A DNA stretch of 64,000 nucleotides from a bacterium (GCA_031411135.1 JANOAN010000009.1:7175-71174); one strand, 5' to 3'; numbered from the stretch's first letter, positions 53,542-64,000 are shown. Notes: generated by a model from the sequence alone, not told the origin. A program made the numbers and translations.

Positions 53542-53901
53542 TTACCCCTTAATCATCCTCTTCACCTTCTGCGCTCCCTTCTTTTTCAAAACTTGATTCT
53601 TGTCTTTGGCAGACGCAAGCATGTCATGGATTTCATCCTTTACAATATCGATCGCAGAATAAATATCAGTTGATTCTGCCACAGCATAAGGATTTTTTCC
53701 CTTAGTCATTTTTTCCTTGTTGATTCTGATTTCTGCTTTGAAGACATCTCCTTTCTTGTGGTGTTTAGTTGTACGAGCCAATTCGACGACAACTATTGCT
53801 TCGTCGTGTAGAAATTTCTTTATGGTTGAAAGCTTCTTTGTTAAATACTGATTGATTTTGTCGTTAATCTCAACATTCGTAGCTTTGATGGTGATGTTCA
53901 T
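53542..53901 (-). CDS. hpf: Ribosome hibernation promoting factor (HPF/RaiA)
   Basis: MNITIKATNVEINDKINQYLTKKL... typical of HPF. Start moved to the internal Met. Confidence 0.7.
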   Translation of the reverse strand: MNITIKATNVEINDKINQYLTKKLSTIKKFLHDEAIVVVELARTTKHHKKGDVFKAEIRINKEKMTKGKNPYAVAESTDIYSAIDIVKDEIHDMLASAKDKNQVLKKKGAQKVKRMIKG

Positions 53902-53955
53902 ATATTTAATATTAAGCTGGTATGGAGTCATTATACGACATTATCTTCTTACGAG

Positions 53956-54210
53956 CTATTGCGAGTTAGAAGATAAGAAGTGCCCTTGTGGTACACCTAT
54001 TTCAAGAATCTTACCTCCCATGTGGTGTCCGGTGATTATTTTGATTTTTGAAGTTGAAATACTGAAGTGATTTGCGATTATTTCAATAACCCTCTTGTTA
54101 GCGCGATTCTCTTTGGCAGGCTCTTTTACTGATATTTTGAAGGAAGTGTCTCGGACTTTCTCGAGGTTCTCATGATTTGAGTCTGCGGTGACTTTGACGT
54201 GAATTAGCAT
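53956..54210 (-). CDS. DUF167 (YggU-like) small protein
   Basis: IHVKV.ADSNHE ... ISVKEPAKENRANKRVIEI.A..F.IS.SKIKII.G pattern. Confidence 0.5.
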   Translation of the reverse strand: MLIHVKVTADSNHENLEKVRDTSFKISVKEPAKENRANKRVIEIIANHFSISTSKIKIITGHHMGGKILEIGVPQGHFLSSNSQ

Positions 54211-54279
54211 AGAATTAACTTGATTATTGCATAATCTTTAGCTATGATGAAGCCCAGCAACAACGGTGTTGCGATACAT

Positions 54280-54351
54280 TCCCCTGTAGCTCAGCGGTAG
54301 AGCAATCGACTGTTAATCGATTGGTCGTAGGTTCGATCCCTACCGGGGGAG
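54280..54351 (+). tRNA. tRNA-Asn (anticodon GUU)
   Basis: 72-nt cloverleaf: acceptor TCCCCTG/CGGGGGA, D-arm GCTC-AGCGGTA-GAGC, anticodon arm ATCGA-CTGTTAA-TCGAT, T-arm GTAGG-TTCGATC-CCTAC, discriminator G. Confidence 0.85.
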
Positions 54352-55899
54352 CATAGAAGTGATTTTAGCCTCAGAATAAGCTTTTGCGTTGTCAGCAAAG
54401 GCTTTTTTGAGTTCGAAATTGTTTTCGAAGCTAAGCACTCGGTCACGGTACTTTCGAACTGGCGTTTTTAGCTCGTACTTCACTGAACCGTCTTTAATGA
54501 TGATTTCACTGAATAGATTTTGCAGAAGCAGTCTTTTGTCACCTGATGATTTTCGTTTGTTGTAGATGCTCTTAGCCCTCTGAGCAAGGTCAAGAATGTC
54601 GATATATGTCTCAAAGTATTCAGCTTCCTGATTTTTGAGTTTCTCTAGCTCAGCTTGGATTTTCTTTTGGTCAGCGATAGCTGTATCGTTCTTGGTTCGC
54701 CACATCTCAGTAGAAATATCACCTGAGAGCTTATCATCGTACATACGGTCTATTTTGACCTGTAGAGAGGTGTATTGAGCGTTCAGTGTCGATATGACAC
54801 TTAGCTTGTACTCAGCTTCTTTCTTGTGATTTTCTTTTATACGCCTCTGTATCTCTTTTGCTTCTTCAGCCGTAATGCTTTCGAATACGCTCATCACATC
54901 AATTAACCTTTTTTCAACACGGTCTTCTCGAACACCACCTTTTTGAGTACAGACTTTGTTGTGTTTACACGCACAATACACTCTGCCTTTTTGCACTTCA
55001 GACGAAATTGTACCCTTACACTCACCACATTTAATCATCTTAGAAAAGATATATTCGTGCCTTTGATAGAAAGGTGCTTTTCCACGAGTTCGCACTTCCT
55101 GAATGATGTCGTAAGTCTCCTTGATAATCAGGGGTTTATGAGTACCCTCACGCAATTCACCTTTCCAAAGGAAGCAACCATAATTGAAAGGGTCTTTAAG
55201 AAACTTCTCAATCTGACTTTTGTATAACCTCTTATCGAACCGAGAGCGAAGACCCACCTCCCACGCTTTTTCTTTAATCGCTTTCATCGAGTAATTACCA
55301 CTCGCATACATCTCAAGCATTTTTCTCGCTTGGTTAAATGTCTTGTCATTTGGTACGAACTCTTTTTTACCTTTCTCACCAACTGATAGATAACCAAGCT
55401 TAAATGAGCCTGGGTATTTACCCTGTGAAGCTTTTTCAGTCTGACCCTTTCGTACTTCTTCAGAAAGGTTATTTGTGTAGAAGCGAGAAATGGCAACTTT
55501 CATATCCCACACAAGGTTTTCGTGTGCTCGTGTATTTCTGCTTACAATAAAGTTTTCTTTGACAAAATGCACCTCGTTTTCACCACTCATTATCCATTCG
55601 CTTATTACCGAGGCGTCTTTGAGATTTCGTGTAAGACGGTCAATTTTCTCAGAGAGAATAAGTTTGATTTTATTCTTTTTTACATAATCAAGCATCTCAT
55701 AAAATACCTTACGGATTTGCTTGCCACTTGCTGACTCAGATATTCTGAATATCTTTACAACATCAATCTGATTTTTATCTGCGTACTGCTCAAGTAAGTG
55801 TTGCTGAGCATCTAGAGAATAGCCAGTATCTTCTTGTTCTTTCGAAGATACACGGCAATATAGAACACATTTTTGACTAAAGTTAGTTGAACTTTTCAT
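54340..55899 (-). mobile_element. Large serine recombinase (integrase). Its last 4 codons overlap the 3' end of tRNA-Asn.
   Basis: N-terminal resolvase domain with catalytic Ser (YCRVSSKEQ), recombinase domain, zinc ribbon C..C...C..C, and coiled-coil C-terminus. 519 aa. Confidence 0.85.
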
Positions 55900-56215
55900 A
55901 GCTTTATTTTATCACTTAATTGCTTATAAATTAACTGCCGAGCTACAACCGAGGTTTACCTTTTTGAATAGGTAACCTTGATATAGCTTCTATGTAGTCA
56001 GAAATGAGATACACGACTACGAGACCCTTTCTGAGAAGACTAGTCATTGGTACTGACTGGAAGTTCATCTTACTCATCTTTTTATCTCTAATCCATATCT
56101 GGAGACCCTACGACACAAATCAGACAGCTCGGTGGCAACCTCGGATAGCCATTTTCCAAGCTTTCGCATTTGTGCCTTAGAAGTCCCTTAATTATTTTCA
56201 CGAAAACTGTCGTCC

Positions 56216-56476
56216 TTAATTTTCGTGTTTCGTAAGAGCATCTTTTTCTTCTCTGCTCTTAAAAGAAGTTTCTTCTGACATTGTAGGCTGTGGCTCACAA
56301 GAGCCTGAAATAGGTTCTCCACTGGTCATTGGAGAACCTATTTCAACCACCTGTGATGTCGCTCGATGCTTTTTAGCATCTTCAAAATCAAAACGAGCTA
56401 ACAAGTCAAAAAACGTGACGATTTCGTCACTTACTTGTACGGCTTCTTTTGTTTTCTGATAACCAGTTAACGACAT
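56216..56476 (-). CDS. Hypothetical small protein (island cargo)
   Basis: 86-aa ORF. Confidence 0.3.
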   Translation of the reverse strand: MSLTGYQKTKEAVQVSDEIVTFFDLLARFDFEDAKKHRATSQVVEIGSPMTSGEPISGSCEPQPTMSEETSFKSREEKDALTKHEN

Positions 56477-56548
56477 AAAGTGTCGTCCGTGGGTGAACCC
56501 TTGGACTACTTTATTGTTGCGTTATTTGGTCTTTAAGTATTCACTGAA

Positions 56549-57367
56549 CTAGCTCAGGTATACCGAAAAAGGTAGTTTCTTTTTCCACTTTGTATAATCT
56601 GCTTTTTTCAGAATGTAACCCTCTAAGGTTTTAAGAGATTTCATATTTTTATTGTGGCTGTGGATAAGCAAAAACCGCACGAGCCATAATTTTGTTAGCT
56701 TCTTATCTTCACCAGTTCTCTTATAAAACTTCTGATATTCTTGCGGATTGATTGTCTGACAAATATTTTTTAGCTGTTCAATACTATACTCAAAGTAGAT
56801 TTCATTTGTGAGCCATTTGTCATCTTTTAAGCCCTCGCTCTGCAACCCCAATTGAGGTATGAAATGCGGTAGATTTCTTTTTTCAGCAATAATCTTTTTT
56901 ATTGAGTACTGAGGTAGAGACAAAAAATCTTTAACCGCCTCGGTCTCAATGCCAGGTGATATTTTGAGATAAATGCAATTATCATTTTCTCCTTGATTAT
57001 GGTCTATCCACTCGATACCACTAAGATTTGAAAGTTTAATCATTTCATCAGTGACACAATCACAAAAGAAAAGTTCAGCCATAAAGTATTTTAACTGAGG
57101 TGTGTTAAGACGATATGCCACCTGAAAATTATCAAGCGTCACTTGTTTCCAAAAACGATAAAAAGCCTTTTTAATACCACCATTCAAGAGTATCTTGAAA
57201 TGCTTTATCCTCTCTGGGAGAGAGCACTCAAGCAAGTAGAAAGTGTCGCCTATATGAAGCTCTTTCCTTATTTTTTGAGCCAGTTTCTTGGTCTTATCAT
57301 TATGGATTTTCTGATAAACGACAAGATTTTTTCTATATAGCTTTTGCTGTAATGGTGACCAGTCCAT
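56549..57367 (-). CDS. Hypothetical protein (island cargo)
   Basis: 272-aa ORF. No motif recognised. Confidence 0.4.
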   Translation of the reverse strand: MDWSPLQQKLYRKNLVVYQKIHNDKTKKLAQKIRKELHIGDTFYLLECSLPERIKHFKILLNGGIKKAFYRFWKQVTLDNFQVAYRLNTPQLKYFMAELFFCDCVTDEMIKLSNLSGIEWIDHNQGENDNCIYLKISPGIETEAVKDFLSLPQYSIKKIIAEKRNLPHFIPQLGLQSEGLKDDKWLTNEIYFEYSIEQLKNICQTINPQEYQKFYKRTGEDKKLTKLWLVRFLLIHSHNKNMKSLKTLEGYILKKADYTKWKKKLPFSVYLS

Positions 57368-57573
57368 AGCACCATTTTAGCAGTTTTAGAGCTTCTAAGC
57401 ACTCAATTATCACTCTGGAAAAAGCCAAGAAAAAGAGAGGCTATTTGTGCAACAAAAGCCAATACCAAAATACTAACTACCAATGCTACTAAGCACGATG
57501 ATACAAAACCAATTATCTCAACAAGATTGAAAAATGCAGATACTATTTTATGTGCTATTGCTTCCATATATCT

Positions 57574-58482
57574 TTACCAAAACTTTAGCTTCCTGAAAAA
57601 CCCAAATACTTTTTGTACGAAGCTTTGCTCGGGTTGTTTTATTTCCTGTTGAAGCGATGAAGTTGTTGTGCTTGTGGCTAGTGTTTTCTCAATCTTTTCA
57701 GTCTCAAATAACTTTGTTTTCTCCTCAGTTTTCTTGGGTATAGTTTTCTGCAATGGAGCTATCTTTGTTGTGATAGTTGGTGTAATTTCTGGAGTTTTTA
57801 CTTCCTCATTTTGTGTAAAAAACTCAGGGTGATACAAGCGATACAGCTCAACGATTTTCAAATAGTTGGCTGGATTGGAGACTTTGAGCAAGTTTATTTT
57901 TGCTGACCATTCATCAGCAGGTAGGGTCTCTAGCCACTCGTACAAATCGCCAATAGTAGCTTGTTTTTGTGGTGCAGTATCTGTTTGATATTTCTGTATG
58001 ACAGTATCTCTTTGCTTGTCATAATACTCATCAATTTCTTTCATCTGCTTCTGTATTTCTTCTATCTGTCTATCTACATCAGCTTGATTATTGACTTGCT
58101 GTTGGTATTGAGATTTTTGAGCCTCAAGAGCACTGATTTGGCTTGAGTATTTGTTATCAATTTTAGTGAACACCTCAGAAGCACCACCCCAAGTTGAGAG
58201 CGTGCCATTCTGAGCTAGCGTACCTGTCGTGTATGTCTTTTCAGTTTCCCATTCCTGACGAAGCTCGGCTATCCTTTGGTCAATGACACTTATGGAAATT
58301 GTAGGACTATTTTGAAGCTGTGACTCTAAGCTCTTAAGGCGATACTCAAGAGCTGATTTTTCCTCTTGCTGTTTGATGTACACATCATTAGGCAAGTAGT
58401 TGTAACTTGTTGCGTATGCAGTAGAAAACACGCTGAAAAAGGCGAATAGAGCCACTGCAAAGGCATATTTATATGTAGGCAT
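57574..58482 (-). CDS. Secreted coiled-coil protein (island cargo)
   Basis: Signal peptide MPTYKYAFAVALFAFFSVFSTAYA, then Gln/Glu-rich coiled coil. Confidence 0.45.
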   Translation of the reverse strand: MPTYKYAFAVALFAFFSVFSTAYATSYNYLPNDVYIKQQEEKSALEYRLKSLESQLQNSPTISISVIDQRIAELRQEWETEKTYTTGTLAQNGTLSTWGGASEVFTKIDNKYSSQISALEAQKSQYQQQVNNQADVDRQIEEIQKQMKEIDEYYDKQRDTVIQKYQTDTAPQKQATIGDLYEWLETLPADEWSAKINLLKVSNPANYLKIVELYRLYHPEFFTQNEEVKTPEITPTITTKIAPLQKTIPKKTEEKTKLFETEKIEKTLATSTTTSSLQQEIKQPEQSFVQKVFGFFRKLKFW

Positions 58483-58741
58483 AGTTGAACACTTCTATAC
58501 CCCAAAACTGGTTTAGCCAAACTGCACTATTAAAAATGGAGAGATTGCAGAAAGGGACAGCCGAGGTGTTCAACTACAACGGGAACCCCAAAGGAGTCCA
58601 ATCATAGAACTCGGACTGCCCCTTTCTGCCTACGATTGGACAGAAAAGGCAAAAAGCCCTCACTCTATGGGTAAAAATCCCTATGTAGTTGAACAAGTAA
58701 AATATAGCACAAAAATAAGCTGAAATTAAGCCCTATTTGCT

Positions 58742-59122
58742 TTAGCTTTTGGAAAGTTCATTTACTCTCTCGATTGACTCTCTCAGCTCATCAGACATTT
58801 CAGGCGAGCGTGACCGATTACGCACTGAGGGACAGCCAAACTCGTGTGGTAGTTTCTTTGATAAATATCGCAAAGCAAAGTGTGCATCTTTCTCTAAGTA
58901 CTCACAAATAGTCTTCCGTGCCTCAAAAATTGGCTTGCTTTTCCACCCTTGTTTTAGCTGTAAAAACTCAGGGTTCTTTTTTTGATAGTTGTAGAGGGTC
59001 TTTTCTGAAATATCTGCGAAAAGACAAGCTTCTGAGTCAGTACAGTCCATATGAAAAGCGGTTTTAAGTTCAGTTAAAACCTTGTCAGTTATTACAGTTG
59101 GTCTTCCTCCTCTTTTTGACAT
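58742..59122 (-). CDS. HTH DNA-binding protein (terminase-small-subunit-like or transposase-like N-terminus)
   Basis: MSKRGGRPTVITDKVL N-terminus is characteristic of phage small terminase / transposase HTH proteins. Confidence 0.4.
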   Translation of the reverse strand: MSKRGGRPTVITDKVLTELKTAFHMDCTDSEACLFADISEKTLYNYQKKNPEFLQLKQGWKSKPIFEARKTICEYLEKDAHFALRYLSKKLPHEFGCPSVRNRSRSPEMSDELRESIERVNELSKS

Positions 59123-59210
59123 ATTGGGAGCTTTTATGTGTTGCCTACACAGGGAGGTGCTTGATAAGGTAATTATATCAAAAAATGGCTGGAAATGTTA
59201 GAATGTTTTT

Positions 59211-59618
59211 ATGAAAGACGACGCTACATTCTTTGTTGGACAAAAAGCTTTTATAAGAAAGGGTGATGAGGTTTTAGTACTTAATGACCCCAAGGAGGGC
59301 TTAGATTTTGCTGGTGGAAAGATACAGGAGGGTGAAGATGATTTGGTTACGTCACTCCAAAGAGAGGTGCGTGAAGAAACTGGACTTGAGATAAAAGTTG
59401 GTAACCCTTTTACTACTTGGGTCAATGAGTTTCCTGTACATCATAGATTTGCTGGTAAAAAAGTATTTCTAGTGGGTTATAAGTGTGAATATGTTTCAGG
59501 TGATATTACTTTGAGCGATGAACACAATAATTTTCACTGGGTCAATAAAGACAATTTTAATGAAGTCAGTGACGGCTCTGTTTTCTTTGACGCCCTTAAA
59601 AAATACTTTACTGAATAA
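59211..59618 (+). CDS. Nudix hydrolase
   Basis: Nudix box GGKIQEGEDDLVTSLQREVREETGL. Confidence 0.8.
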   Translation: MKDDATFFVGQKAFIRKGDEVLVLNDPKEGLDFAGGKIQEGEDDLVTSLQREVREETGLEIKVGNPFTTWVNEFPVHHRFAGKKVFLVGYKCEYVSGDITLSDEHNNFHWVNKDNFNEVSDGSVFFDALKKYFTE

Positions 59619-59621
59619 TCT

Positions 59622-60119
59622 ATGATTTCCTTACGTTTTATCCCTATTTTTGAAGACAAGGAGTTTACTGATGCTGTAGCTGAGTACAAGCAGATTTGGG
59701 AAGCTGAGGGTGTCAGAATTATTGATGCTTTCAAACAGATAACAGGACTCTCTTTTGTTGAAAATCGGATAGCTATTGTTATATACGAGGGCGTGAGTTT
59801 TTCAGGACGTACCCCAAACGATATGATGAAATTGCGTGCAAGCTATACGGCTGATGTTAAAAAGGCAACACTCGTACACGAATTATCTCATCGCTTGCTT
59901 TTTAATCTCAAAAATAGACCTGAGGGTGATGAACACCAAGTCATTAACTTATTTCTTTATGATGTGTGGGTAGAGTTGTATGGCGAGGACTTTGCAAATG
60001 AAATGGTAGAAATTGAAAAAAAGCGAGCTGAAAATTATCAAATTGCTTGGGATTTTGCACTTTCACTTACGAAAGAGCAAAGAAAAGAAAAGTTTTCAGC
60101 CCTGCAAAAAAGCTTATAA
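59622..60119 (+). CDS. Hypothetical protein with an HExxH motif (VHELSHRL)
   Basis: 165-aa ORF, 3 nt downstream of the Nudix gene. Confidence 0.35.
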   Translation: MISLRFIPIFEDKEFTDAVAEYKQIWEAEGVRIIDAFKQITGLSFVENRIAIVIYEGVSFSGRTPNDMMKLRASYTADVKKATLVHELSHRLLFNLKNRPEGDEHQVINLFLYDVWVELYGEDFANEMVEIEKKRAENYQIAWDFALSLTKEQRKEKFSALQKSL

Positions 60120-60121
60120 AT

Positions 60122-61240
60122 ATGACAAATAATCAAGATGAAAACTCAATAAAAATTGTAGAGGCAATTCCTGAAGATGCAAAAGGGATTACTACTGTTT
60201 TGTATAAAACTTGGCTTGATACCTATCCCAATGAGGAAATAGGTATCACGAAAGAAGATGTTGAGGATAGCTACAAAGACGCTTTTACAGAGGAAAAAAT
60301 AAAAAGTCAGCAAGAAAGAATAGCGACCACTCCTGAAAATCAAAGACGATTGGTCGCTAAAAATGGCACTGATGTTATTGGTATTGCCACAATGATACGT
60401 AATAATGATAACAATCAGCTAAGGACGATATATGTGCTTCCTGAGTATCAGGGTAAGGGTGTAGGCTCAATGCTATGGAATGAAATAAAAAAGTTTTGTG
60501 ACCACTCTAAAGACACGATTGTTCAAGTAGCCACCTACAATAAAAGTGCTATCTCTTTCTATGAAAAGCTGGGTTTTGTTGATACTGGAAAGAGGTGGTC
60601 TGATGAAAAATGGAAAATGAGAAGTGGTGCAACTATCCCCGAAATGGAGATGATGATAATAGCAAAAAACCAAAAAGATTGGTCTGAATACTACGAAATA
60701 ACAAAGGCTAAGCCACCCACAAAACTTCTTGTAAAAGCTCTTGAATATGTCACTGATAAAGGCAAAGCTATTGATATTGGAGCTGGTGCGTTGAAAGACA
60801 CACGATACCTGCTTGAACAGGGTTTTGAGGTCACTGCGATTGATAAAAGCCCTTTAATGGAGCAGGGAGTCAAAACACTAGAAAATGATAAGGTTCAGGC
60901 TTTTACGACCTCATTTGAAGATTTTGATTTTTCTGAAAATAAGTATGATATTGCCTCTGCAATGTTTTCTCTGCCATTCACTGAGCCAGCACATTTTGAG
61001 ACAGTCTTTATCAAGATAAAAAACTCACTCAAGAAAGGTGGTGTGTTCTGCGGTCAATTCTTTGGAATGAATGATGAATGGTCAAAAAATCCTAAGATGA
61101 CTTTTCATACTGAAGCTCAAGTAAAAGAATTGCTCAATGGTCTTGAGGTGCTTTCTTTTAAGGAGGTTGAGGAAGATAGTACTACGGCAAACGGCACACC
61201 AAAGCATTGGCATATTTTCCATATAATCGCAAAGAAATAA
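60122..61240 (+). CDS. GNAT N-acetyltransferase fused to a class-I SAM-dependent methyltransferase
   Basis: N-terminal half has RTIYVLPEYQGKGVGSMLW...ISFYEKLGF (GNAT motifs A/B). C-terminal half has AIDIGAGALKD (MTase motif I) and a D/E acidic loop. Start set at MTNNQDEN. Confidence 0.6.
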   Translation: MTNNQDENSIKIVEAIPEDAKGITTVLYKTWLDTYPNEEIGITKEDVEDSYKDAFTEEKIKSQQERIATTPENQRRLVAKNGTDVIGIATMIRNNDNNQLRTIYVLPEYQGKGVGSMLWNEIKKFCDHSKDTIVQVATYNKSAISFYEKLGFVDTGKRWSDEKWKMRSGATIPEMEMMIIAKNQKDWSEYYEITKAKPPTKLLVKALEYVTDKGKAIDIGAGALKDTRYLLEQGFEVTAIDKSPLMEQGVKTLENDKVQAFTTSFEDFDFSENKYDIASAMFSLPFTEPAHFETVFIKIKNSLKKGGVFCGQFFGMNDEWSKNPKMTFHTEAQVKELLNGLEVLSFKEVEEDSTTANGTPKHWHIFHIIAKK

Positions 61241-61243
61241 TTT

Positions 61244-61774
61244 ATGAACTATATCTATCACTGGGTTCCAAAAGATATGCAAGGAGATGTACTTTTCCCT
61301 CTGAACACTCTTAAAGACACGCACCCTGATTTGTATGATAAGGAAGCAAGCAAATATGTAGGACGAGAACAAATAATGCAACACAAGCTTCCTGTTTTGA
61401 ATTGCTTATGGAACGACGTATTGCATTTTTCCGCCGTTCACCCCTCAGAAGTAAAACAGGCTTTAATTGACGCTGGTAGAACAAAACCTTTTGATATTGA
61501 GTTTTTTGAAGTAGACCCACATCTTTTGACCACTGAAAATACAATTGTTTATTTATACAAGCACAGCAGTATGGCTGACAAATTGAAAGAAGATAATTTT
61601 GCGAAGTATAATCCTGATGATATGGCTCAGTATTCTGTATTGCCACAAGAAACAAAAGATTATTATAAAGAAATAATTTCTCAGGGTAAAAATCCGCTAC
61701 TATTTCATCGAGTACCGCACATACTTTTCAGAGGCTCACTCGACACGTCAAAGATTAAAAGAATTAAAGCTTAA
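61244..61774 (+). CDS. Hypothetical protein
   Basis: 176-aa ORF tightly packed in the cargo operon. Confidence 0.35.
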   Translation: MNYIYHWVPKDMQGDVLFPLNTLKDTHPDLYDKEASKYVGREQIMQHKLPVLNCLWNDVLHFSAVHPSEVKQALIDAGRTKPFDIEFFEVDPHLLTTENTIVYLYKHSSMADKLKEDNFAKYNPDDMAQYSVLPQETKDYYKEIISQGKNPLLFHRVPHILFRGSLDTSKIKRIKA

Positions 61775-62374
61775 ATGACTGAACCTCAAAACTTTACCCC
61801 TGCATATTTAGTAGCTTGTGCCGAACTGTATCACTTAGATTTTATCGCAAGCAATTTCACAAGGTCTGCAAAACTCCTACACGAGCAAGGAAATGGCTCT
61901 GAACATTCACAGTCATTTCACCTATTGGTATCAATGGCTTTTGAGCTTTTTCCTAAAATCCTCATCGGCTGTGAGACCTGTCTACTTCACCAAAACGACG
62001 TAACTCTGACGGTAGACGAAATAAGAGCAAAGATTGTTGATGAACACAGAAAAGTTGGTCATAATCTGAAAAAGCTTTTTGAGAAGTATCCTGACCTTAT
62101 GCAAGAGCTTGAAATTGAAGCCGTCACGAGAGTCCCTGATGACCCAAGCAAAGAATGGTTTGTAAGCGAGTACCGATTTAAGGTTAAAGACTATCAGTAC
62201 CTACTAAGTATCAAAGACGTGGAAGCTGTGAGGTACGGCTCATTCTCACAAAATCGTGATGTGGCTATGGACTGCACTGGTGATGAAAAGATTTTGAACC
62301 TGCTTTTGAAACTCCAAGAGTTTGTGCATAAAAAGAAATTAGAGACTATTCAGCAGATGAGGGCTACAATATAA
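61775..62374 (+). CDS. Hypothetical protein (possible HEPN-like R-x-x-x-H motif, weak)
   Basis: 199-aa ORF starting 1 nt after the previous stop. Confidence 0.3.
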   Translation: MTEPQNFTPAYLVACAELYHLDFIASNFTRSAKLLHEQGNGSEHSQSFHLLVSMAFELFPKILIGCETCLLHQNDVTLTVDEIRAKIVDEHRKVGHNLKKLFEKYPDLMQELEIEAVTRVPDDPSKEWFVSEYRFKVKDYQYLLSIKDVEAVRYGSFSQNRDVAMDCTGDEKILNLLLKLQEFVHKKKLETIQQMRATI

Positions 62375-62477
62375 AAATTAGACGGTAAGCAAAGACCTAA
62401 CATCTCGTAAAGTGCTTGTAATATAAGGGTATTCTTTGAGCCAATCTATAGTTAGAAAGTCGTCCTGTAAAGCGAGC

Positions 62478-62580
62478 ATTGTAGACAAACCTCTTTTACT
62501 GTTGTAATATCCCAGCAGTTCTTTAAACCTCTGGCTGTATCTTTTAGGGCATTTAGGTGTCTTGAAAGATGCAGCCACAA
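62478..62580 (+). repeat. ~100-bp promoter/leader module, copy 1 (tagaca-17-taatat then a 10-bp stem hairpin)
   Basis: About 93% identical to 63069..63168. Lies about 40 nt upstream of an ATG at 62622. Confidence 0.65.
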
Positions 62581-62621
62581 CTCTAAACTTAGGCTGTTGC
62601 CACATACAAAACCACTGTCTT

Positions 62622-62945
62622 ATGAAAAAAATTGACACTAAAACTGTTTCCACAATTCTAAGAAAGGCACAGAAAGGCCCTCGAATGACTGGTGGAAAAA
62701 GATGGTCAGAAGGACGCCTGAAAGTTATCTCGAAAGAAAACCCAGCAATAGCGACATTTCTGAATGAATTTCATTTTTCAGGTTCGAGATTCCACAGGAT
62801 GTCGGGAATCGAATCTGCGGTAATACTCTACGAAATCTTCAGGGTGTCCAGCAGGAAAACTTCGTCGACGAAGAAGAAACCTGAGCCTGAAATCGTCTAC
62901 GGCCCCGCTGGTCGCGACCGCATCAGAAGACGGCCTCAATTATAA
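62622..62945 (+). CDS. Hypothetical basic protein
   Basis: Internal Met of ORF 62562..62945 chosen because it sits downstream of the conserved leader. The overlapping minus-strand ORF 62378..62653 is a less likely alternative. Confidence 0.3.
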   Translation: MKKIDTKTVSTILRKAQKGPRMTGGKRWSEGRLKVISKENPAIATFLNEFHFSGSRFHRMSGIESAVILYEIFRVSSRKTSSTKKKPEPEIVYGPAGRDRIRRRPQL

Positions 62946-63068
62946 CGCCCGCCGACAACTCATACTGAGCCTGTCGCAGCGGGCTTTTGTATTTTTATAC
63001 CCAGGAAGAAAACTTCCTACCCCTCCATCAAGCAGGTTCGAGCATCCTCCCACCTTTGGTGCCTTGTA

Positions 63069-63168
63069 GACAAAATTCTTTTCCCGTTGTAATATCCCAA
63101 CAGTTCTTTAAACCTCTGGCTGTATCTTTTAGGGCATTTATGTGTCTTGAAAGATGCAGCCACAACGG
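63069..63168 (+). repeat. ~100-bp promoter/leader module, copy 2
   Basis: Direct repeat of 62478..62580. Lies about 40 nt upstream of gene 63206..63502. Confidence 0.65.
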
Positions 63169-63205
63169 ACTAGTATCACTCACTTAAAATAAACCAGGAG
63201 ATACA

Positions 63206-63502
63206 ATGAACGACGCAGTCACGCAAGCAGAAAGAATCTTTAAGGTCGGTGAAGGTGTCTACTTCCGGTCAGACACGATGGGAACACCCGAGCTCGACGA
63301 ACTCGTACGCAAAGCTGTTAGGAAACATGGTGCGGGCCCGCATGTCATCATTCGAACCGATATCGGCCGTGGCGATGGTAACCAAAAATTGAAATTCAAA
63401 GGATCCATCAGTGCCGGCCTCGGTGAAGATGCCCCGGCAGCTTCAATGGTCGATGAAATGACGTGGGACTCGCGTTATTTCAGTTCCATTCCCCGCACAT
63501 AG
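63206..63502 (+). CDS. Hypothetical protein (GC-richer)
   Basis: 98-aa ORF with RBS aggaga 8 nt upstream. Confidence 0.4.
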   Translation: MNDAVTQAERIFKVGEGVYFRSDTMGTPELDELVRKAVRKHGAGPHVIIRTDIGRGDGNQKLKFKGSISAGLGEDAPAASMVDEMTWDSRYFSSIPRT

Positions 63503-63649
63503 CAGACACCAGCCCCAAGGCCCCATTCAGCGTTAGTCCCCTCGACTCACGTTGTTGGGGCCTTTCGTTTTTATGTGAGTAAATAAGTTCGAACCCCCTC
63601 CCGCCTTTGGAGCCGTGGTACGTCTAGGAAGATTTGGTATAATACATTT

Positions 63650-63859
63650 ATGAATAAAGATGCCAAAAATTCAAAGTTAGAATATTGTAAGGAAGAACTA
63701 AAAAACCTATTAAATAAATTAGTTGAGGGAAACTATCACATTACGGCAGAATTTATCTATGACCATATTGCAAACTCTGGAGTGGACATGAAAATCCATC
63801 CTGAACTCCAAAACCAAAAAACTATGTACGAGTTCTTGAAAGAGGAAGAGGCTGTATAA
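63650..63859 (+). CDS. Hypothetical small protein
   Basis: 69-aa ORF with a tataat box about 20 nt upstream. Confidence 0.3.
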   Translation: MNKDAKNSKLEYCKEELKNLLNKLVEGNYHITAEFIYDHIANSGVDMKIHPELQNQKTMYEFLKEEEAV

Positions 63860-64000
63860 TTTTTGCTTACTTCCCCACCAAGTAGGTTCGAACCCTCCAG
63901 AGGGCTGCTGTTTGTATTCAATCGCTTTGCTCTTGAACAAACAGGGAGCATCCTCCCACCTTTGGAGCCAGCTATTGACTTATCTTATATTTATGTTATC

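Follow-up and report, generated by a model that had tools for sequence, protein, structure and literature searches.

Staphylococcal cassette chromosome (SCC) elements such as SCCmec are inserted by Ccr-type large serine recombinases (LSRs) at the 3' extremity of rlmH (orfX) without destroying that gene, and composite SCC arrays hold tandem units, recombinase-less ones included, with repeated attachment (att) sequences between them. In archaeal viruses of the SSV1 type, the element-borne site attP lies inside the integrase gene, int, which is partitioned upon integration into a tRNA gene. In the mycobacteriophages BPs and Brujita, a protein has one C-terminus when the phage is integrated and another when it is free. 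One report places attP of these phages in the repressor gene (PMC4557955). The tycheposons of Prochlorococcus comprise both cargo-only and recombinase-bearing units, a minority of them with large serine recombinases, and are inserted successively at one tRNA gene, with older inserts pushed out and degenerating (10.1101/2020.12.28.424599). Here, a bacterial DNA stretch of 64,000 nucleotides (GCA_031411135.1, JANOAN010000009.1:7175–71174; hereafter the window, with positions counted from its first letter) was analysed around a tRNA-Asn gene whose 3' end is overlapped by an LSR gene. Positions 54353–62477 very probably constitute an ~8.1-kb integrative element, which was inserted at the tRNA-Asn end by its own LSR, carries its attP inside the LSR gene and adjoins cassettes that appear to use the same core.

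Junctions of the element at tRNA-Asn

The gene for tRNA-Asn(GTT) was located on the plus strand at 54280–54352 by ARAGORN (54280–54351 by Rfam, with 70.8 bits), and the 519-residue LSR, in its integrated and truncated form, was assigned to 54340–55899 on the minus strand from its open reading frame (ORF) and its Pfam and PHROG matches. The final LSR codons, ATG CTC | CCC CGG TAG, cross the left junction (attL) into tRNA DNA, and the TAG stop (54340–54342) falls within the 3' strand of the T-stem, which results in an overlap of 13 nt with the ARAGORN tRNA or 12 nt with the Rfam tRNA. This agrees with a preliminary description made from the sequence alone, which had ascribed the overlap to an element that restores the tRNA end. 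Instead, attP was found within the LSR ORF, so that the integrated LSR reads over the junction into the host tRNA. Both the LSR and its displaced tail are intact, so the gene is not a frameshifted pseudogene, and the decayed prophage envisaged in that description is not supported.

The right boundary was derived by comparing a conserved module and the junctions of five integrated elements (those of the window and of contigs L008, L009, L012 and L018). In all five, a far-end module with the sequence TGCTCGCTnnACAGGACGAyTTT(CT/AG)AAC..ATTGATTGG, encoding (M/L)L-ALQDDF(L/R)TIDW..EYP, is found 5.9–8.1 kb upstream of the LSR, on the same strand. The window copy of this module is the displaced 3' end of the LSR gene (62378–62479, minus strand), which encodes (ML)ALQDDFLTIDWLKEYPYITSTLRDVRSLLTV* and holds a P-type half-site (~62450–62473). 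The attL core GAGC, made up of G71-A72-G73 of the tRNA and the first trailer nucleotide, occupies 54349–54352, and the attR core GAGC, at 62474–62477, marks the right end. As GAGC(A) is all that attL and attR have in common, the crossover dinucleotide must fall inside GAGC, and the crossover lies within the LSR codons (A/T)TG CTC. From core to core, the window element measures ~8,125 bp (54353–62477), and its sisters span 5.9–7.5 kb. When the LSR-facing side of attL was joined to the inward-facing side of attR, the reading frame was maintained in each of the five elements, with tails of 29–36 residues. For the window element, the predicted attP join reads ..AAAATCACTTCTATGCTCGCTTTACAGGACGAC.. 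(junction sequence GAGGCTAAAATCACTTCTATGCTCGCTTTACAGGACGACTTTCTAAC) and the predicted empty site reads ..CCTACCGGGGGAGCATTGTAGACAAACC.. (junction sequence GGTTCGATCCCTACCGGGGGAGCATTGTAGACAAACCTCTTTTAC).

The preliminary description had let the element run to 63200; it ends at 62474–62477, and 62478–63200 belongs to a separate cassette array. When the tRNA 3' end was searched for as a direct repeat, with a 21-mer and a 15-mer at up to three mismatches, no second copy was found, nor is one to be expected of junctions that share GAGC(A) alone. The sole tRNA-like repeat returned by a generic repeat search, at 63882–63904 (19 of 23 positions identical to the T-arm), was rejected as the right end, being part of a broken site (U4) of the short repeat R_a described below.

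The extent of the element is in independent agreement with Logan contig L001, which covers 54307–62545. A family member on contig L051, which encodes LSR homologue P0037, shows a 30-nt terminal overlap; this equals k−1 of the Logan assemblies and denotes a 6,949-bp circle, whose intact attP reads ..CCTGCCTTGCTCGCGTTGGCAGACGATTTTAGAAC... Genomes lacking the insertion, with which comparison had been recommended, are represented by metagenome contigs L030 and L035, in which no LSR follows the tRNA and of which the former matches the host flank of the window with 83–88% nucleotide identity. The proposal that an LSR-borne integrative element with rightward cargo sits at tRNA-Asn was thus borne out by the two junctions, the cargo that differs between loci, the LSR-less sites and the circular family member. 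Breaks of Logan contigs from the same sample (the ends of L001 and the end of L020 at 54247) were not taken as evidence of excision, since they fit k-mers shared with another tRNA-Asn and with the 103-nt repeat R_b and are uninformative in this respect. In the closest genome found (L002, with an Fmt protein 78% identical), the contig stops exactly at the tRNA end, and in L004 and L005 no tRNA was found near fmt.

Relatives of the LSR were collected with a word-indexed search with scored candidates, which returned >1,200 at E<1e-30, and with an exhaustive search, which returned 1,447 representatives at E<1e-30 after clustering at 50%. Those with names came nearly all from metagenome-assembled genomes (MAGs) of Paceibacterota, Parcubacteria or Moranbacteria, and the LSR-element family is mostly borne by Patescibacteria. 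The DNA around eight relatives with 44–56% identity (L007, L008, L009, L012–14, L015, L016–17 and L018) was then compared, and in all eight the LSR ORF converges with a tRNA gene and enters its 3' end. ARAGORN identified tRNA-Asn in L008 and L009, with an LSR overlap of 40 nt and a stop at the TAA of the anticodon-loop antisense, as well as in L012–14 and L018, with 13 nt as in the window. The tRNA of L015 and L016–17 was interpreted as an intron-split tRNA-Asn, and contig L007 terminates within the T-loop of its tRNA. Judged from these loci, the overlap of LSR and tRNA is not due to chance. At tRNA-Asn of other Patescibacteria, LSR homologues with 49–56% identity are accompanied by wholly different cargo. 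For example, L018 (4641–8547) has an OLD-family nuclease/ATPase and an Mrr-nSTAND protein, which look like defence genes, and L008 has an AAA ATPase and an S8 peptidase. In L016 (6279–8913), a second serine recombinase is accompanied by a ParB-like protein, a sigma-70 region-4 protein and tRNA-Arg(TCT). A constant recombinase and a constant target combined with unrelated cargo indicate a site-specific mobile element rather than a core region.

Further observations concern this tRNA. In many relatives, an insert of ~270–300 nt between U35 and U36 splits the anticodon loop of tRNA-Asn (L016 11591–11856, minus strand, as well as L015, L022, L023, L026, L028, L031, L032, L034, L036, L037, L039, L040, L042 and L043). 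The insert of L016 matched the group I intron model RF00028 with 45.9 bits (E 1.8e-10), slightly below the gathering score of 50. These split genes are missed by ARAGORN, and the LSR ORF continues to extend into their 3' exon. A second LSR clade, with 27–29% identity to the window LSR, lies ~150 nt downstream of tRNA-Asn in convergent orientation (L023 4457–5920, L026 1467–2447 and L036 3180–4163, each locus oriented with the tRNA on the plus strand), with an AGGTTC(G/T)AAC-like motif ~90 nt past the tRNA end, so that several serine-recombinase lineages seem to use tRNA-Asn. An inverted and interrupted copy of the tRNA-Asn 3' end (TGCTCCCCCGAG..GTAGGGATCGAAG) follows the tRNA in L028 (~155–205, oriented), ~35 nt downstream of it and past a terminator hairpin, and a similar one is present in L022.

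The window LSR matched the Pfam families Resolvase (PF00239, E 3e-25, residues 12–162) and Recombinase (PF07508, E 8e-09), with the zinc ribbon Zn_ribbon_recom (PF13408, E 5e-05) reaching 24.1 bits, slightly below its cut-off of 25.3, and it matched the PHROG integrase phrog_95 at 1.6e-68. In an alignment of 65 LSR sequences, R8-V9-S10 (P0037 numbering) were invariant and Cys286, 289, 307 and 313 were conserved. The catalytic domain aligned to TP901-1 integrase (3bvp, E 3.5e-07), and in an AlphaFold2 (AF2) model of P0037, helices 340–436 are inserted between beta elements as an embedded coiled coil. By its domains and the geometry of its sites, the recombinase is thus classed as a serine integrase. 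An equivalog identity of the Ccr, XisF or phage type was ruled out by NCBIfam and by comparison with phage LSRs: the Ccr models gave 78 (CcrB), 54 (CcrC) and 46 (CcrA) bits against cut-offs of 700–900, and sequenced phage LSRs were at most 28.5% identical, none of them aligning to the LSR tail. Of note, the nearest LSRs from deposited phages (MT837677.1, MT836653.1 and MT839758.1) come from unannotated "Bacteriophage sp." entries of 4–9 kb from human faeces, which could be the same type of small LSR replicon from gut Patescibacteria or Firmicutes. On its host side, the window carries priA, def, fmt, HPF, DUF167 and tRNA-Asn, and these flank genes, together with the names given to relatives, point to a genome of the Patescibacteria, or candidate phyla radiation (CPR). 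A relaxed-threshold Rfam scan of 53900–64000 matched the tRNA alone.

Replacement of the integrase tail and attachment-site arms

In its excised form, the LSR is predicted to comprise ~546 residues, with a conserved 31-residue tail (ALQDDFLTIDW..EYP..) behind a disordered linker; the tail of the window element reads ALQDDFLTIDWLKEYPYITSTLRDVRSLLTV*. Integration splits the gene at the codons for (M/L)-L and leaves the tail at attR, and the resident LSR gains a new end from the tRNA antisense up to the first stop, which is PR* in the window. In many relatives the new end is RG* or RR*, and it extends to 13 residues (..QGSNLRPND*) where the T-stem gives no stop; the tRNA itself is intact after integration. 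Proteins with the tail still contiguous with the LSR were also found (P0037, P0068, P0005, P0075 and P0119). The ends of the 120 closest homologues read xLxx* in 71 cases and ..(Q/L)DSN(L/Q)RP.. in 32, while 6 are tailed; a terminus of tRNA-antisense residues is thus present in at least 103 of them. The DSN motif corresponds to GAT TCG AAC, the antisense of the T-loop, and ends of this type cover the antisense of acceptor and T-arm. A set of 148 more distant representatives included at least 66 with tRNA-antisense ends and, as counted by eye, roughly 15 with tails of the W..(D/E)xFRT type. This family-wide pattern of C-termini results from integration, which swaps the LSR tail for tRNA antisense.

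The AF2 model of P0037 has a mean predicted local distance difference test (pLDDT) score of 82, and its core domains end near residue 490, followed by a disordered linker (494–525) and a tail of short helices with a pLDDT of 50–65. As the domains end before the linker, truncation spares all catalytic and DNA-binding domains. Conservation of the tail reaches 20 codons past the 25-bp half-site, with variable third positions, and in tail codons 10–30, outside the ~25-bp arm, the median non-synonymous divergence (dN) was 0.46 and the synonymous divergence (dS) was saturated. These rates suggest that selection acts on the tail as a peptide. Truncated and full-length LSR may differ in activity or regulation, so that the enzyme would "know" whether it is integrated. 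One option is that the tailed form alone would integrate efficiently, and another is that the truncated form would answer to a small acidic protein, encoded upstream of the LSR, for excision.

Alternatively, the swap may carry no regulatory meaning, with attP merely situated at the gene's 3' end and the tail conserved as DNA bound by the integrase. This would account for the fact that DDF(R/L)T in the tail is encoded by the P-arm motif itself (GACGAyTTTAGAAC), and it is in keeping with the low AF2 confidence of the tail behind its disordered linker and with catalytic and DNA-binding domains that truncation leaves unaffected. We regard this explanation as unlikely, albeit a serious contender, because the residues IDW..EYPxP...L.E...LL are conserved 20 codons beyond the half-site with dN well under dS, and the arrangement has been kept in >1,000 diverged representatives.

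Two short ORFs on the minus strand, of 91 residues (62378–62653) and 48 residues (63017–63163), are artefacts that are liable to be called hypothetical proteins; they arise where the frame of the displaced LSR tail, or of R_a antisense, stays open across the R_b repeat. In the literature that could be searched, neither an LSR gene that spans attP nor CPR tRNA-Asn LSR elements were found described, which is not proof of novelty.

The arms of the attachment sites were numbered outward from the TC of TGCTC. In each of the five tRNA (B) arms, a motif T(C/T)(G/T)AA begins at position 14, whereas it begins at position 18–19 in all six element (P) arms and in seven of seven R_a sites; the TTCGA of the tRNA T-loop is the distal motif of the B-type half-site. 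In LI integrase, the motif bound by the zinc ribbon lies at positions 16–24 in attP and at 11–19 in attB, a shift of 5 bp (Rutherford et al., PMC3783163). By analogy with this shift, the tRNA T-loop was assigned to the B type of arm and the DNA that codes for the tail to the P type, the shift being found for one half-site of each pair only. One conserved half-site per partner may suffice, in which case the tRNA junction would stay a usable target after each insertion and allow units to be stacked.

Cassettes to the right of the element

Immediately right of attR, the plus strand carries a row of small transcription units. Cassette A starts with the first copy of R_b (62479–62581), which contains a sigma70-like promoter (TAGACA-17-TAATAT) and a leader, and its body (62622–63062) consists of a 107-residue ORF (62622–62945), a terminator (62967–62986) and the R_a site U2 (63034–63062). 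Cassette B (63064–63613) repeats this plan with the second copy of R_b (63064–63166), a 98-residue ORF (63206–63502), a terminator (63540–63560) and U3 (63585–63613). Cassette C (63614–63968) has a junction and promoter of the sequence GTGGTACGTCTAGGAAGATTTGGTATAAT, which comes directly after the tRNA in L030 and L035, a 69-residue ORF (63650–63859) and U4 (63884–63968). Cassette D starts at 63969 and runs past the end of the window (64000) to ~64599 on Logan contig L019, where a 135-residue ORF, a terminator and U5 are followed by a third R_b; this independent contig extends the row to 64613. The two 103-nt R_b copies of the window are 94% identical, and R_b supplies the promoter of three units. 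The R_a repeat, of 24–30 nt, recurs at 63034, 63585, 63946 and 64570. Each unit is thus laid out as a sigma70-like promoter at most ~10 nt from the GGAGC core, a small ORF, a hairpin-T terminator and a 28-nt R_a. The preliminary description had noted repeat-rich small genes as part of the element; the repeats are real, and the genes lie outside it, in this array.

R_a reads GTTCGAACATC(C/G)TCCCACYTTTGGAGC and aligns to the P arm of the element, both having TCGTCC at a distance of 8 nt from GAGCA. Translated in the LSR frame, R_a gives ..W(D/E)DVRT, comparable to the DDFRT of the tail, and the database LSR P0051 ends in LLQTWDDVRI... No further R_a copy was found in the window outside this right-hand array. 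U4 is interrupted after GGTTCGA by an insertion of ~52 nt with a hairpin of its own (CTGTTTGT..ACAAACAG), which breaks the half-site spacing, so that this site is probably dead. The GC content of cassettes A, B and D (0.45–0.49, with 0.49 for B) differs from the 0.38 of the host and the LSR element, which suggests that their genes were drawn from another gene pool.

A metagenome scan with the last 30 nt of the tRNA yielded 30 loci, and rows of R_a were found downstream of tRNA-Asn in L030, L035 (five), L049, L024/L029 (four), L028 (four) and L031, with nhmmer E-values of 1e-10 to 1e-4 and a weakest site, in L024/L029, at E 0.04. In the window and in these loci, R_a occurs only downstream of tRNA-Asn and always in the orientation of the tRNA, and the ORFs between the sites are unrelated, some of them being on the opposite strand. 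Scans of viral contigs with the R_a consensus and with the P arm of the element gave 0 matches each, and a simple search for the R_a spacing pattern in other LSR loci returned nothing convincing.

Close relatives differ by whole units. L030, which is the same species as MAG contig L002 (98.7% identical), matches L035 with 97% identity through the tRNA and 30 nt beyond, after which their first cassettes are unrelated. Compared with L022, L024/L029 hold an extra recombinase-less unit of 575 bp (promoter, 117-residue ORF, terminator and R_a) exactly between the GGAGC of the tRNA and the old flank. Over its first 60 nt past the core, this flank shows no difference between the contigs, and over the following 920 nt the identity is 93.5%. 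The sequence that follows the tRNA in L030 and L035 (GTACGTCTAGGAAGATTTGGTATA) follows U3 in the window, at 63614. In the history that we propose, cassette B, then cassette A and then the LSR element would have been inserted at the tRNA, each moving older units outward, which would make the LSR element the newest, tRNA-proximal insert. On the evidence of sites and junctions, the cassettes were probably inserted successively at the same tRNA core by this type of LSR acting in trans.

A competing explanation is that the array is a graveyard of decayed elements, which once had recombinases of their own, instead of a row of mobile cassettes. Tycheposons provide a precedent for such accretion (10.1101/2020.12.28.424599), U4 is broken and arrays often lack a nearby LSR. 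Searches with tblastn at E<=10, however, detected nothing but noise for LSR fragments in the arrays, and the units are tidy, with a promoter at most ~10 nt from the core, one ORF, a terminator and an R_a that is nearly identical across genomes whose flanks do not align. Moreover, loci with and without the recombinase-less 575-bp unit differ by breakpoints that fall on the core to the nucleotide. We give the graveyard explanation minor weight, though not a negligible one, and favour mobile cassettes.

Several points weigh against this account of element and cassettes. Neither an excised circle nor an empty site of the window element itself was seen. The opposite arms, P' (LSR linker-coding DNA) and B' (post-tRNA host DNA), have no common motif, and serine integrases normally read two half-sites; the P arm of the window has TCTAA instead of TCGAA. 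No LSR is present within 2.5–7 kb of some cassette arrays, and a functional difference between tailed and truncated LSR is purely inferred. Finally, a 15-nt stretch of the tRNA-Asn 3' end (TGCTCCGCGGGTAGG) recurs without mismatch in L012 (4863–4877 and 11610–11624), which falls outside the simple model. This copy was rejected as attR because 110 nt, with a terminator-like hairpin, separate it from the conserved P arm, outside of which it lies; it may be a scar that an older insertion left through another mechanism.

Gene content, significance and relation to known systems

Next to the LSR, on the minus strand at 56216–56476, the element encodes a small acidic protein of 86 residues with the motif IVxFFDLLARFDFED. 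Such a protein (55–86 residues) is encoded 300–600 nt upstream of the LSR in all eight elements compared and is the only gene besides the LSR that they have in common, which makes it a candidate accessory or directionality factor. A 30-nt inverted repeat (56295–56356, 83% complementary, with a 2-nt loop) lies in the non-conserved C-terminal half of this ORF and could act in regulation as a hairpin, serve as a terminator or resemble an origin. Further minus-strand genes encode an unassigned protein of 272 residues (56549–57367), with a 39% identical homologue in the L008 element; a hydrophobic or membrane peptide of 54 residues (57403–57567); a secreted coiled-coil protein of 302 residues (57574–58482), assigned from its ORF and library scans; and a 126-residue "RGGRPT" helix-turn-helix (HTH) protein (58742–59122) resembling the terminase small subunit (TerS; phrog_4102, E 1.6e-12), with a match that spans little beyond the HTH. 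A plus-strand cargo block (59211–62374) comprises a NUDIX protein (59211–59618), a 165-residue HExxH protein (59622–60119), a fusion of GNAT and SAM methyltransferase (60122–61240) and proteins of 176 (61244–61774) and 199 residues (61775–62374). The neighbours listed in the preliminary description (a small ORF, proteins without assignment, the secreted coiled-coil protein, the RGGRPT protein and a plus-strand operon) are therefore all present. Pfam, PHROGs, NCBIfam and PADLOC gave no function for the 272-, 176- and 199-residue proteins or for the cassette ORFs, and PADLOC matches were at domain level only (NUDIX to PDC-S07 and the methyltransferase to mad2).

These small genes invite the alternative that the element is phage-derived, either as a remnant or relative of an inovirus-like prophage or as a satellite packaged by a helper via the TerS-like protein. 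On IMG/VR contigs L006 and L007, LSRs with 44% identity adjoin a Zot/pI-like ATPase (phrog_197 and phrog_1675) and a rolling-circle Rep (phrog_3419), element sizes of 6–8 kb suit inoviruses, and the window offers the 54-residue hydrophobic peptide, the secreted 302-residue protein and the TerS-like HTH protein. Moreover, inoviruses with serine recombinases have been reported from many phyla, the CPR included (PMC6813254). Nevertheless, the four libraries gave no capsid, portal, pI/Zot, Rep, primase or conjugation match for the window proteins, of which the LSR alone matched L006/L007 proteins, and the TerS match is little more than an HTH. The absence of capsid and tail genes reported in the preliminary description thus holds, save for that one TerS-like match, and a phage origin is improbable. 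An LSR module of small protein, LSR and internal attP is common to different small replicons.

Still less probable, and largely refuted already, is the view that the LSR and its neighbours form an ancestral immobile chromosome region with a domesticated recombinase and an overlap caused by gene crowding in a compact genome, since the equal GC content (0.380 for the element and 0.38–0.39 for the host) and the synteny tRNA-Asn / DUF167 / HPF / fmt / def / priA, recurring in the distant LSR-bearing L009, L012 and L016, are opposed by cargo unrelated from locus to locus, sites without LSR in L030 and L035, a 6.9-kb circular family member and an LSR tail at the opposite end that joins in frame. A search for the same genes in relatives without a recombinase was negative, and GC content and skew, which had been proposed as island markers, did not distinguish the element from its host.

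Two unusual sequence features are well supported, namely the tail swap and the P-type sites of the cassettes. Taken together, the tRNA-Asn end, the LSR family and R_a could represent a serine-recombinase counterpart of the integron, with a state-sensing integrase tail, an idea that we put forward tentatively and hold to be somewhat more doubtful than probable. The tRNA 3' end would serve as a fixed B-type dock, and the cassettes and the LSR element, each ending in a P-type half-site, would be inserted and removed one by one through B x P recombination in which the opposite arms are ignored. Tail replacement would switch the activity of the integrase, its stability or its response to the small acidic protein.

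For the small genomes of Patescibacteria, this provides a testable picture of gene acquisition and shuffling, with tRNA-Asn as the hot spot, an enzyme family of >1,400 representatives and defined sites. If correct, a serine integrase gene that spans attP would be a built-in state sensor, which bears on the direction control of serine integrases. If one conserved half-site per partner suffices, these LSRs and their ~25-bp sites would be candidates for orthogonal integration tools, and rows of cassettes would represent a second, non-tyrosine route to integron-like gene capture. As to annotation, hundreds of database LSRs that end in ..LLRG, ..MLPR or ..QDSNLRPIA are integrated copies reading into a tRNA, and short ORFs at the far ends of LSR islands are displaced integrase tails, not genes.

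Compared with described systems, the window LSR resembles the LI/A118, Bxb1, phiC31 and TP901-1 integrases in its set of domains, which comprises Resolvase, recombinase and a zinc ribbon bearing a long insert of coiled coil, and it shares with phage serine integrases the short att sites, the minimal crossover identity and a distal motif 5 bp further out in attP. It differs from them by an attP within the integrase ORF, a tRNA 3' end as the target and one conserved half-site each. As regards inoviruses, pI/Zot and Rep matches, both present in L006 and L007, were absent from the window proteins. As in SCC arrays, recombinase-less units are stacked at the 3' end of a housekeeping gene; unlike SCC/Ccr, the target is tRNA-Asn instead of rlmH, each unit consists of one small gene under a promoter of its own, and the integrase gene spans attP. 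With SSV1-type viruses the window element shares an integrase gene split by integration. There, however, a tyrosine recombinase is divided into large N- and C-terminal parts, whereas the serine recombinase of the window loses only a post-linker tail of ~31 residues. In BPs and Brujita, which have a tyrosine integrase, it is the repressor that changes, whereas here it is the serine integrase itself. Tycheposons are similar in building islands at tRNA genes by repeated site-specific insertion and differ in their partial tRNA flanks and mostly tyrosine recombinases, the window repeats being P-type sites with shifted spacing; a partial tRNA copy was not found in the 21-mer and 15-mer search, and no replication gene was detected. 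With integrons, finally, the locus has in common a fixed primary site and one-directional single-gene cassettes that each end in a conserved recombination site, with contents that vary among close relatives and the newest insert adjoining the primary site. It departs from them in that no IntI tyrosine recombinase was seen, the recombinase adjacent to the array being of the serine type, and in that R_a resembles a double-stranded serine-integrase half-site rather than an attC hairpin, the cassettes carry promoters and terminators of their own, and the primary site is the end of a tRNA.

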